From Candidatus Bathyarchaeota archaeon (lineage in GTDB: Archaea > Thermoproteota > CALKCG01 > B24 > DRYS01): 64,000 bases of DNA. The notes under the pieces are model-generated. The model had not been told where the DNA came from. It searched no databases and saw nothing but the letters and a program-made list of their open reading frames with translations. Each line of letters begins with the position of its first letter. Positions within the stretch are counted from its first letter, which is position 1. Positions 261 through 10,789 of this stretch are shown piece after piece. The stretch covers positions 32,001 through 96,000 of the forward strand of contig JAGTQC010000001.1 in NCBI GenBank assembly GCA_018396535.1, in the 5' to 3' direction. A program made the position numbers and the translations under genes.

Positions 261-292
261 TTATGGGAGGGGGCTGGCCCTCACCCGCCTCT
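261..292 (-). other. Non-canonical 29/30 tRNA intron (32 nt)
   Basis: BHB-like: central ATGG/CCAT, bulges CGA and AAG, inner helix GAGG/CCTC. Confidence 0.85.
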
Positions 293-373
293 CGCCATGC
301 TTGGCCGCTGCACCACCGGGCTACCCTCCCATTGTATTATCTCTCTAGGAGGGTTTTAAGGGTTTTGGTTGGT

Positions 374-7788: not shown

Positions 7789-7914
7789 CTATATACATTT
7801 TTGTGTTAATATATCGAATCCATCTTCTTTTTACCTCTTCAATACAACTATATAGGATCCCATGATACAACTACAGTTTTCTATACCCGATACACTAAAA
7901 ACATTTCCAACAGA

Positions 7915-7920
7915 CTTAAA
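7915..7920 (+). promoter_or_regulatory. Putative TATA box for the structured RNA
   Basis: CTTAAA about 27 nt upstream of the 5' strand of the closing helix. Confidence 0.45.
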
Positions 7921-7946
7921 TCCTCTCACCACCTTAGATAAAAATC

Positions 7947-8271
7947 GCCGGTCGACGGGCGGTACCCCGTTACATCTCTATAGGTTTCTATAGGGATGTA
8001 ACGGTGGATAATACAACGGTAAACAGCCTCCTCCCCCCGGAGGAAGGGGGTCTACCGGGGGGGACCCCCTCCTGGGAGACTGTTTACCGTTGTATTATCC
8101 ACCGTTACATCCCTATAGAAACCTATAGAGATGTAAATCTGAATACCCCTAGGTCCCCCGCCTAGGAGTATTCAGAGGAAGGGGATGCTTGCAATTAACC
8201 GTAGGCTCCGTAACCGGAGCCGAAGGTTGATTGTAAGCCATGGAGGAAACTCCTACCGCCCGATAAACGGC
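7947..8271 (+). ncRNA. Unclassified highly structured RNA closed by a perfect BHB motif (predicted 310-nt circle, 7957-8266)
   Basis: GCCG-GTCG-ACG-GGCGGTA pairs with TACCGCC-CGAT-AAA-CGGC; several internal hairpins; G-U pairs favour the + strand; no ORF in the track. Confidence 0.7.
7970..8136. repeat. Perfect 57-bp inverted repeat (7970-8026 / 8080-8136) with a 53-nt GC-rich spacer
   Basis: Arms checked base by base as exact reverse complements. Confidence 0.97.
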
Positions 8272-8329
8272 ATCCCTTCTATTCTACGATCATCATGAAT
8301 TCGAGTTTATCTACTCTATCGTAACTGGT

Positions 8330-8590
8330 TTATGGAGCTAGCTCCTGCTGACCCTTACCTGTAATCCTCCATGTAGATGGTCTACGCGATACCCTTACTA
8401 CTATACCATCCCTCTCCATCTTCCTAAGCTGTTTTAGTGTCGCTGAGTATGATCTACCTATGGCTTCAGATATAGTATTTGCATCAGATATACCTATCCT
8501 TAGGAGTTCTATTATACGGCTCCTAGTTCTAAGACCTTTCTTAACGTTTCTAGTCGTAACTAGGTATGATTTAGCATCGTATCTATCCAT
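8330..8590 (-). CDS. Small winged helix-turn-helix protein
   Basis: TRSRIIELL...ANTISEAIGRSYSATLKQLRKMERDGIV...WRIT pattern. Confidence 0.8.
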   Translation of the reverse strand: MDRYDAKSYLVTTRNVKKGLRTRSRIIELLRIGISDANTISEAIGRSYSATLKQLRKMERDGIVVRVSRRPSTWRITGKGQQELAP

Positions 8591-8677: not shown

Positions 8678-9709
8678 ATGTCTAGACGTATACTCGATGG
8701 CGATGTTATCTATAGTAGGGATGGATTCATATTCTATACATTCGGCTATGAACATCCACCAGATAGGATCATAGCTTTCCTCAAGTATATCCCGAAGGAG
8801 TATTCCAGTAAGCTTAACATAGAGTATCTAAGCTATGAGTGGGGGTTTAAGGGTAGGAGGTATGTTAGACCTGCTAAACTCTATACGGCTGAGAATTATC
8901 GTCGTATAATAGAGTTCTTCGAGAAATACTATCCAAGCTATGTATACGACTGCCCTGTGAATAATAGGAAGCTTATAGCTGTACCCAAGGATCTTATAGA
9001 GGAGGTATACTATCCAGATGAGGGGCTACGTAGAGTTCTAGGTATAAGCTCCCTACAACCCATATATAGAGCCGCCGTGGATTTCATAGAATTGGTATCT
9101 AGAGTATCTGGTATCGGTTTAGAGAATTTCGGTCTCCACGGATCCCTCCTCCTAGCTATGGAGTCTGAGAACCCGGATATAGATATAGCAGTCTATGGAT
9201 GGCAGAATTATCGTCTCGTTAAACAGACTATCGGAGAATTAGAGGCGAAGGGCTATCTTAGGATCCTATATGAAGATCCATTGGATTATAGGAGGAGGAA
9301 TAGATGCGTATTCAGAGGATATAGGGTGGTATTGAATGCTATACGTAAACCTTGGGAGGTTCACGATATCTACGGGTCTGTTATACGTAAATCTGTTAAG
9401 CATGTAAAGTTTAGAGCTATAGTTAGGAATGCGTTCGAATCTGTATTCCGTCCAGCTATCTACATAATACAGGGGTACACACCTCTAGACGAGGATTCAC
9501 GTGTATCTAAGGAGGATACACCGTGGTTTCTAGTATCGATGATAGGAGCCTATAGGGATATACTGGAGGAGGGTATGGTTATAGAGGTTTCAGGCCTACT
9601 CGAAAGAGAGTATCTACCAGATGGTAGACCATATAGGACTAGGGTTATCGTAGGCTCAGGTTTAAGCGATGATGAATACATAAGTATAGTTAGAGATAAG
9701 TATAGTTAG
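8678..9709 (+). CDS. Predicted Pol-beta-like nucleotidyltransferase (COG1665-like), paralog 1
   Basis: GLHGS...PDIDIAVYG motif; C-terminal OB-like IEVSGLLE region. Confidence 0.8.
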
Positions 9710-9727: not shown

Positions 9728-10789
9728 ATGAGGCTTAGAGATAGGGATTACATAGTCGGTGTGGAAGGTATACTATTCAGGGTTCTAGGATATCTCCATC
9801 CACCAGATGGTTATGTATGCGAACCCGAATACGCACCCAAAACGATATTCAAATCATCAAATCCTAGAGCACCGAGAGGCTATCCAGAAGTAGCGTACTT
9901 CAAATTCTATGGTGATGAAGGTTTAAAATTCGTAGAAAAGAATTATCCATCATACCGTATATACGTTAAGCCTCTCAGAACATACCTAGTCGGTGTTCCT
10001 CTAGAATTAATATCAGCTATAAGGAAGCCTCAAGATGGACTAACCAGGATTATGGAAGCATCATCGAGAGATAAACTTCTTAACGATACCGTGGAGATAG
10101 TGGATATACTATGCGAAACTGCGAATCTCAGTGTATCGGATATAGGTGTCTTCGGATCGATACTACACGGATTCCATAACCCTAATCTATCAGATATAGA
10201 TCTAGTAATCTATGGATCCAGGTGCATAGTTAAGCTTAAGGAATGTTTATCTGAGCTATACAGTATGGAGGATAGCCGTCTAAGGAATGAATACGATTTC
10301 CCAGTTGAGAAGCCTAGATGGATATTCAGAAACTATAGTTTGAAGGAGTATATATTCCATGAGAGGAGGAAGATGATATACGGTAAATATTGGGATGGAG
10401 ATAGATGGGTTAAAGTAGAGTTTGAACCAGTTAAAAGCTACGATGAATACCGGGATGAGTATACGGAGATAGTATCGATAGATAAGGTTGGATGGGTTAA
10501 ACTTGAATCGGTAATAGTGGACGATAGTAGTGTATACTTTACACCAGCTGTATACGGAGTCGAGGTTACGAAGCTCGTATCCGGTCCTAGAGAGGCTTTA
10601 GATACCTCTAAGATAGTATCCTATATAGACGAGTTTAGGCTTCAAGCTTGGAGGGATGAGGAGGTTTACGTAGAAGGGATGTTGGAGAGGGTTATTAGAA
10701 GGGATAGGGTTGAATACCAAGTTTCTCTAACATACTGCGATAGGTATGTAGATCAGGTTTTAAAGCTTAGGAGGATCCCAGGATTATGA
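9728..10789 (+). CDS. Predicted Pol-beta-like nucleotidyltransferase (COG1665-like), paralog 2
   Basis: RLRDRD, GYLHPP, GVFGS...SDIDLVIYG and VEGMLE motifs. Confidence 0.8.
   Translation: MRLRDRDYIVGVEGILFRVLGYLHPPDGYVCEPEYAPKTIFKSSNPRAPRGYPEVAYFKFYGDEGLKFVEKNYPSYRIYVKPLRTYLVGVPLELISAIRKPQDGLTRIMEASSRDKLLNDTVEIVDILCETANLSVSDIGVFGSILHGFHNPNLSDIDLVIYGSRCIVKLKECLSELYSMEDSRLRNEYDFPVEKPRWIFRNYSLKEYIFHERRKMIYGKYWDGDRWVKVEFEPVKSYDEYRDEYTEIVSIDKVGWVKLESVIVDDSSVYFTPAVYGVEVTKLVSGPREALDTSKIVSYIDEFRLQAWRDEEVYVEGMLERVIRRDRVEYQVSLTYCDRYVDQVLKLRRIPGL

Follow-up and report, generated by a model that had tools for sequence, protein, structure and literature searches.

A candidate stand-alone gene for a structured non-coding RNA framed by a bulge-helix-bulge motif, and its predicted circular product, in a class of archaea

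What is encoded by a compact and highly structured segment of an archaeal genome, if its two ends pair into the motif that the splicing endonuclease cuts and no gene that it could interrupt surrounds it? This question is raised by an element at positions 7947-8271 of the plus strand in a stretch of 64,000 nucleotides from a hot-spring archaeon, Candidatus Bathyarchaeota (assembly GCA_018396535.1, contig JAGTQC010000001.1, positions 32,001 to 96,000); the whole stretch is called the window below, and positions refer to it unless another contig is named. We assign a probability of roughly 0.7 to the reading that the element, about 325 nt long and present as a single copy according to our search of the source genome (G000), is a stand-alone gene, probably transcribed from its own promoter, for a structured non-coding RNA (ncRNA) that belongs to no described family. 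The ends of this RNA form the motif called bulge-helix-bulge (BHB), and the geometry of the motif suggests that the RNA is most likely released as a ring of 310 nt.

Conserved ends and the absence of a host gene

The ends of the element carry the complete helix-bulge-helix-bulge-helix (hBHBh') arrangement, with two 3-nt bulges on opposite strands, 4 bp between them and helices on both sides; the outer, central and inner helices and both bulges, which the first-pass annotation had proposed from the letters of the window, were all found where it had placed them (Table 1). According to the canonical rule, the endonuclease EndA cuts after the second nucleotide of each bulge, and the predicted circle is then 310 nt in G000 and 309 nt in the other three variants available from the genus. 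The same rule reproduces the 32-nt intron of the tRNA-Gln gene in the window (about 261-298, minus strand), whose strict BHB, AGC-AUGG-CGA-GAGG ... CCUC-CCAU-AAG-GCU, has the geometry that the annotation had described as common to both elements.

The significance of the BHB comes from its conservation across families and not from geometry alone. The RNA was found in 16 of the 16 genomes of the class by means of two covariance models, R1 for the version in the genus of G000 and R2 for the 3' half of the RNA of the sister family f3; R2 matched all eight f3 genomes, all three f2 genomes and f4, the remaining f4 genome having the 3' part at the end of a contig. The f3 RNA ends in GGUCA-AAA-GGUAGYG ... 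CRCUACC-UGAY-AAA, which is the same BHB. In an alignment of 13 full-length sequences from four families, the columns of the BHB and the inner helix (H1) contain no indel and the 3-4-3 geometry is kept; 92.3% of the cells are paired, compared with 27-50% in slid controls, and 10 of the 16 pairs have changed on both sides. Compensatory changes are found in all three helices: the outer helix appears as GCCG/CGGC, UCG/CGA, GUG/CAC, UUG/CAA or GUGCCG/CGGCAC, the central helix is paired in 96.2% of its cells with its fourth pair switching between G-C and A-U, and five of the seven pairs of H1 differ on both sides. The 5' bulge is constantly 3 nt long while being ACG, AUA, AAA, AAG or AGA. The conservation in relatives on which the first-pass annotation had made its reading depend is therefore present, free of indels, in all four families.

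Several points weigh against this reading. When the whole 1.41-Mb assembly was scanned by script for the strict geometry, spanning 60-700 nt and with at most one G.U pair, 68 places were obtained, a chance-level number telling us that the geometry alone is not rare in an AT-rich genome; the BHB described here is the richest in G-C pairs among the 68 (11 of 15, the next best having 8). In two genomes (G003 and G009) one pair of the central helix is an A/C mismatch. Furthermore, a nearest-neighbour energy model favours, by 1.8-4.9 kcal/mol in three of the four genus variants, a competing pairing that adds 2 bp to the inner helix. This last result speaks for a linear structured ncRNA, whose BHB-like ends would serve as a closing stem or in end trimming, or whose circle would be short-lived and re-opened, as it is elsewhere for pre-16S rRNA; circular pre-rRNAs are indeed re-linearised in many archaea (PMC12918454, PMC7714728). 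A plain stem, however, would have no reason to keep 3-nt bulges 4 bp apart, with no indel in four families, while the sequences of the helices change. In the fourth genus variant, carried by the metagenome contig L025, the alternative pairing is abolished by an A x C mismatch, the central helix is a perfect GUCG/CGAC and the BHB is itself the structure of minimum free energy (MFE). After ligation H1 would be neatly capped by a loop of 7 nt, and no second processing motif is evident. On these grounds we regard a linear end product as rather unlikely.

The surroundings of the element fit its reading as an intron without exons, which the annotation had put forward on the strength of an upstream TATA-like box, a downstream pyrimidine-rich tract and the lack of a host gene or open reading frame (ORF). 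Both signals are present. Every family of the class has, 26-34 nt upstream of the outer helix, a TTAAAT/TTTAAA box, and in all of them a T-rich tract follows the outer helix immediately. In the alignment of the four genus variants, the 25 nt after the TTTCCAACAGACTTAAAT block and the 3' flank are variable; because of the box spacing, and because an invariant block is followed by a variable leader, transcription would start near 7944-7947, a few nucleotides before the outer helix. The sequences on either side, AT-rich and without resemblance to a tRNA, are not conserved; conservation is limited to the BHB-bounded part, which argues that the excised piece is the product. The "exons", about 10 nt on the 5' side and 5-20 nt on the 3' side, are so small, unconserved and AT-rich that no host tRNA or other gene exists here on either strand. 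Searches of the locus with ARAGORN and Rfam found no tRNA, those with Rfam found no rRNA, and no notable ORF covers 7947-8271; two short ORFs considered as conserved coding genes are both broken by 1-nt indels in the alignment.

The remaining form of a host would be a hidden one, such as a tRNA gene on one strand or the other that carries non-canonical introns, and the element would be a giant intron of it. Archaeal tRNA genes with long introns do escape tRNA finders, and neither ARAGORN nor the Rfam tRNA model found the tRNA-Gln gene of the window, with its 32-nt intron. The position of the TATA-like box, 31 nt before the outer helix, nevertheless leaves only about 10 nt of 5' exon, and a gene for a helix-turn-helix (HTH) protein of the winged-helix type ends 58 nt downstream of the RNA gene. 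The flanks, unconserved among congeners, are AT-rich, whereas tRNAs here have about 70% G+C, and joining the exons would yield nothing more than a 4-bp hairpin. A hidden host is thus very improbable.

Interior fold and its covariation

The inside of the RNA is as elaborate as the annotation had described: the 57-bp duplex, the hairpins at 8138-8176 and 8187-8238, the GUA/GAA internal loop and the GGAG-GAAA-CTCC hairpin are all present, the second of the two hairpins (H5) having a slightly larger extent in our fold (Table 1). The MFE is -225.5 kcal/mol, compared with -109 +/- 5 kcal/mol for shuffled sequences (z = -21.6). Besides G000, the element is carried by two congeners (G001 and G002) and by L025, at 75-80% identity and in the same gene order. 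Across these four variants 96.8% of the pair cells are paired, and 34 of 137 pairs have changed on both sides, as against 1-7 in slid controls and 0/500 in shuffles. Covariation, which the annotation had named as a check on its fold, is accordingly found within the genus as well as class-wide, in both cases by counting pairs against slid controls. The long duplex (H3) contributes 23 of its 58 pairs, with 95.5% of its cells paired, and the hairpin H4 contributes 7 of its 17.

Since 23 of the 34 pairs changed on both sides are in H3, the arms of this duplex co-evolve and are not decaying like transposon repeats. This matters for an explanation at the DNA level, namely that the element is a palindrome, a remnant of a miniature inverted-repeat transposable element (MITE) or an origin-like cruciform. 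Such an explanation can refer to the near-perfect 57-bp inverted repeat and to the minus strand, which folds almost equally well (-222 vs -225 kcal/mol). The compensatory changes in the arms are, however, unlike the independent decay of a MITE, the genome has a single copy, and the f3 version is without any long palindrome. In the helices G.U cells outnumber A.C cells (42:16 and 69:13), an excess that indicates selection on the plus-strand RNA; GNRA loops stay GNRA, and the signals for promoter and terminator point along the plus strand. We can give hardly any credence to a purely DNA-level feature.

Two more specific ideas on the fold and the kind of RNA were examined in the same material. 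A conformational switch through "self-folding arms" of H3 was rejected, because these arms form 27 of 27 pairs in G000 and only 17-22 of 27 in its kin, so that the property is not selected. Guide RNAs of the box C/D type, with RUGAUGA and CUGA boxes and a K-turn, and of the H/ACA type, with an ACA tail and a pseudouridylation pocket, were looked for as well, and no conserved boxes were found in the four-variant alignment and no snoRNA-type Rfam match above noise.

Table 1. Features of the RNA gene and its immediate surroundings in the window; a slash between two positions marks a predicted cut.
Feature	Position	Strand	Remark
Upstream block TTTCCAACAGACTTAAAT	7904-7921	+	18 nt, identical in all 4 genus variants
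TATA-like TTAAAT	7916-7921	+	starts 31 nt before BHB outer helix; putative promoter
BHB outer helix, 5' strand GCCG	7947-7950	+	pairs with 8268-8271; covaries class-wide
BHB central helix, 5' strand GUCG	7951-7954	+	4 bp with 8261-8264 (CGAU), one G.U
5' bulge ACG	7955-7957	+	predicted EndA cut 7956/7957
Predicted excised, circularised RNA, 310 nt	7957-8266	+	junction ...CCCGAUAA/GGGCGGUA...; deduced from the geometry of the BHB and the presence of EndA and RtcB
Inner helix H1, 5' strand GGCGGUA	7958-7964	+	7 bp with 8254-8260
P2, 5' strand CCCC	7965-7968	+	pairs with GGGG 8181-8184; 4 bp; compensatory C-G to U-A in G002
H3, 57/58-bp duplex, arms about 7970-8026 and 8080-8136	7970-8136	+	G+C-rich branched tip 8027-8079
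H4 hairpin	8138-8176	+	outer stem covaries; apex CCUAGGU-CCCCC-GCCUAGG invariant
H5 hairpin	8185-8241	+	invariant symmetric GUA/GAA 3x3 internal loop, 4-nt loop
H6, GGAG-GAAA-CUCC GNRA hairpin	8242-8253	+	loop GGAA in G002
Inner helix H1, 3' strand UACCGCC	8254-8260	+	pairs with 7958-7964
BHB central helix, 3' strand CGAU	8261-8264	+	pairs with 7951-7954
3' bulge AAA	8265-8267	+	predicted EndA cut 8266/8267
BHB outer helix, 3' strand CGGC	8268-8271	+	pairs with 7947-7950
Pyrimidine/T-rich tract ATCCCTTCTATTCT...	8272-8292	+	putative terminator; sequence not conserved
86-aa basic winged-helix protein gene	8330-8590	-	convergent with RNA gene; most persistent neighbour (families f1, f3, f4, genus g2)

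Relatives within the class and the question of identity

The RNA gene usually adjoins the small winged-helix gene, and in two families it lies between fbp and that gene. A search of this interval in relatives, which the first-pass annotation had suggested, yielded in family f3 a structured RNA of 283-339 nt in the same slot. Copies outside the class were looked for with R2 in 134 other genomes of the phylum, and none was found; beside the homologous HTH genes of 17 genomes of other classes, R2 with its filters off detected no RNA and the scan no BHB. Pattern scans of genome and metagenome collections with the apex of H4 returned only the genus itself, with one new variant, L025.

The versions of the genus and of the rest of the class share the genomic slot, the BHB, H1, the 4-bp P2, H5, H6 and the promoter spacing. 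The base of H5, AUUAACC...GGUUGAU in the genus, corresponds to AUAACC...GGUUAU in f3, H6 is a shortened form of a class-wide hairpin, GGGAGG...CCUCUCCC, and a motif at the tip of H3 is common to the genus version and to f2 and g3. On the other hand, the genus version has lost the junction strands GUCUAAAGUCGAAAGG and GAGUAGAUAGG, which do not vary in the other three families; a single hairpin, that with the invariant CCUAGGU-CCCCC-GCCUAGG tip, replaces a three-way domain with two GNRA hairpins, and H3 has been lengthened to 57 bp. To the points already counted against our reading should be added that the two models do not detect each other's targets, R1 giving no match outside the genus and R2 none in G000, G001 and G002. 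The homology of the two versions consequently rests on synteny, on the alignment of the BHB, H1, H5 and H6, and on the tip of H3, and these comparisons support the view that the genus element is a derived, divergent member of an RNA family carried by the whole class.

Because the size of the element fits the RNA of the signal recognition particle (SRP) or of RNase P, the annotation had weighed both identities and doubted them, and the covariance searches bear out this doubt. No Rfam family matches the element or the f3 loci, either at the gathering threshold or at E values up to 10, where only noise of the microRNA-hairpin type appeared. The SRP RNA model (RF01857, with its helices 5, 6 and 8), permuted forms included, has no match on the element at E = 10, whether used whole or in halves; a canonical SRP RNA gene of 178 bits, not flanked by a BHB, is present elsewhere in G000 (C2:17154-17470, minus strand, L001). 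We observed that the terminal helix of this SRP RNA, GGGCGGUAG/CUACCGCCC, shares 8-9 nt (GGGCGGUA/CUACCGCCC) with H1, which is about what chance gives for two RNAs of 320 nt. A 5S rRNA (RF00001), suggested by the loop-E-like GUA/GAA, was rejected in view of a canonical 5S gene at C10:17748-17867 of G000 and in 15 of the 16 genomes of the class. The RNase P RNA models (RF00373 for type A and RF02357 for type T) have no match on the element, which is without an equivalent of the conserved regions (CR) CR-II or CR-V. A P4-like pairing, ACUCCUA/UAGGAGU, was also rejected; it is disrupted in both G002 and L025, whose altered base covaries within H4.

For a permuted or strongly derived copy of one of these RNAs, there remain, beside the size, two observations. 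First, no search detected an RNase P RNA in the assemblies of G000 and G001, where genes for Rpp29 and Rpp30 are present, and the search found no CR-I, CR-II or CR-V motif anywhere in the G000 assembly. Second, the 14-nt string UGGAGGAAACUCCU (8241-8254, in H6) is identical to CR-I of the RNase P RNAs of the class. Against this, among the 16 genomes of the class 11 have a canonical RNase P RNA, and G002 and all eight f3 genomes possess it together with the element; the string is the sole similarity in local alignments of the elements with the RNase P RNAs of nine genomes, and it belongs to a covarying GNRA hairpin derived from the class-wide H6. Its identity with CR-I is probably a chance convergence of a GNRA hairpin. 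Taking into account also the lack of even a partial Rfam match, the canonical SRP RNA and 5S genes, and the P4-like partner that covaries with H4 instead, we see next to no likelihood in a disguised form of a known RNA.

The two genomes in which no RNase P RNA was detected, G000 and G001, have the string without a mismatch; in G002, where that RNA is present, one position differs. In G000 the region syntenic with the RNase P RNA gene of G002 (C7:267200-269135, L096) retains only a remnant of about 20 nt of the 3' end, ACGGCCAGCATACTCAGCC; its neighbours are an ORF of the HTH type and others that look like toxin-antitoxin genes, and after a further 1.3 kb the contig ends.

In the f4 RNA a 28-nt GNRA hairpin is repeated as a tandem array, with a unit of approximately GGGTATCCGTAAGGATGCTTGGAAATCC in at least 4-8 copies (L055:1560-1705, L057:1-155 and the last 330 nt of L076), and this array breaks or gaps both f4 assemblies; in genus g5, three related hairpins stand in a row. 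The f4 fbp gene (L039 and L040; G005:C114 and G008:C24) has its match split into three successive segments that lie in different frames (residues 2-146, 133-249 and 246-364); frameshifts, an error of assembly or introns in the mRNA could be the cause. A pair of paralogous genes of about 345 aa, 27% identical (8678-9709 and 9728-10789, plus strand), is divergently oriented to the winged-helix gene and conserved together with it in families f1 and f3. Both carry a nucleotidyltransferase motif of the Pol-beta type, only one being matched by Pfam, and neither has a relative by sequence in NCBIfam or PDB.

Proposed biogenesis, role and relation to known systems

EndA cuts BHBs, and the excised piece is circularised by ligation (PMC7714728, PMC12558985). 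The genome of G000 encodes two EndA paralogues (PF01974, at C2:6489-6728 and C1:182466-182720), which may represent the heteromeric type of the enzyme, and RtcB (C7:165752-167059). We propose that transcription from the TATA-type promoter would start a few nucleotides before 7947 and end in the T-rich tract after 8271, and that the ends of the transcript would pair into the strict motif. The heteromeric endonuclease would then cut after the second nucleotide of each 3-nt bulge, and RtcB would join the 2',3'-cyclic phosphate and the 5'-OH of the excised piece into a circle of 310 nt, with the junction in the 7-nt loop (CGAUAA/G, the slash marking the joint) that caps H1; the "exons" of about 10 nt and 5-20 nt would be discarded. 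The product of these steps would be an exonuclease-resistant, thermostable rod-and-hairpin RNA.

As to its role, the circle most likely serves, judging from its design, as a protein-binding scaffold or a decoy and not as a sequence-specific catalyst. That this is a guess from architecture must be placed on the debit side of our reading. What leads us to it is that the genus has lost junction motifs invariant in the other three families while the BHB, the arrangement of the helices and a number of invariant hairpin tips have been kept, and that sister families multiply hairpin modules in tandem. Modular behaviour with a constant closing motif is typical of scaffold RNAs in ribonucleoproteins. 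Putting these threads together, we tentatively suggest, at somewhat less than even odds, a new kind of RNA gene, an intron without a host whose sole product is a BHB circle and which provides every genome of the class with a modular protein-binding scaffold; its modules would be lengthened, multiplied or swapped, with the circular topology and the closing helix held constant. If this is true, the loss of the core in the genus without loss of the gene would mean that function lies in the shape and the displayed hairpin tips and not in a catalytic or ligand-binding core. Comparison of the genus with the rest of the class, by showing which parts are dispensable, narrows the search for a protein partner.

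We found no description of stand-alone BHB-framed ncRNA genes in the full-text literature; both the family of RNAs and the architecture of its gene are without precedent there, and the chemistry of processing is known. The published substrates of the archaeal splicing endonuclease are, to our knowledge, introns of tRNAs and a small number in mRNAs, the processing stems of rRNAs and a single permuted SRP RNA, and the list of large structured archaeal RNAs known to us is very short, with little on it beyond SRP RNA, RNase P RNA and the rRNAs. Our reading, if correct, would add a large structured RNA to this list, reveal a new route to stable ncRNAs in hyperthermophiles and offer a natural model for what circular topology gives to an RNA at high temperature.

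The system most similar to the present one is found in Thermoproteus tenax and T. uzoniensis, whose SRP RNA is circular and processed at a BHB (Plagens et al. 2015, PMC4731332). In both cases a structured RNA of about 300 nt, neither tRNA nor rRNA, has ends that form a BHB, and endonuclease and ligase give a stable functional circle, which is a prediction for our element. The Thermoproteus RNA is a permuted copy of a universal RNA whose normal topology is restored by circularisation, whereas the element described here is not permuted and belongs to no known family, and G000 has an ordinary SRP RNA elsewhere. Circular tRNA introns and the circles of pre-16S and pre-23S rRNA in archaea (PMC7714728, PMC12558985, PMC12918454) resemble it in the motif, the predicted cuts and the enzymes; there the host exons or the mature body are the main product, while here no host exists and the excised piece alone is conserved. 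A third comparison is with the BHB intron in the 5' untranslated region of Haloferax volcanii HVO_1309 and with the introns of the cbf5 mRNA of Crenarchaeota (PMC7714728 and references therein), which show EndA at work on BHBs that lie in neither tRNA nor rRNA; those are short mRNA introns, and the present case would extend the action of the enzyme to a structured RNA of 310 nt with a putative promoter of its own.

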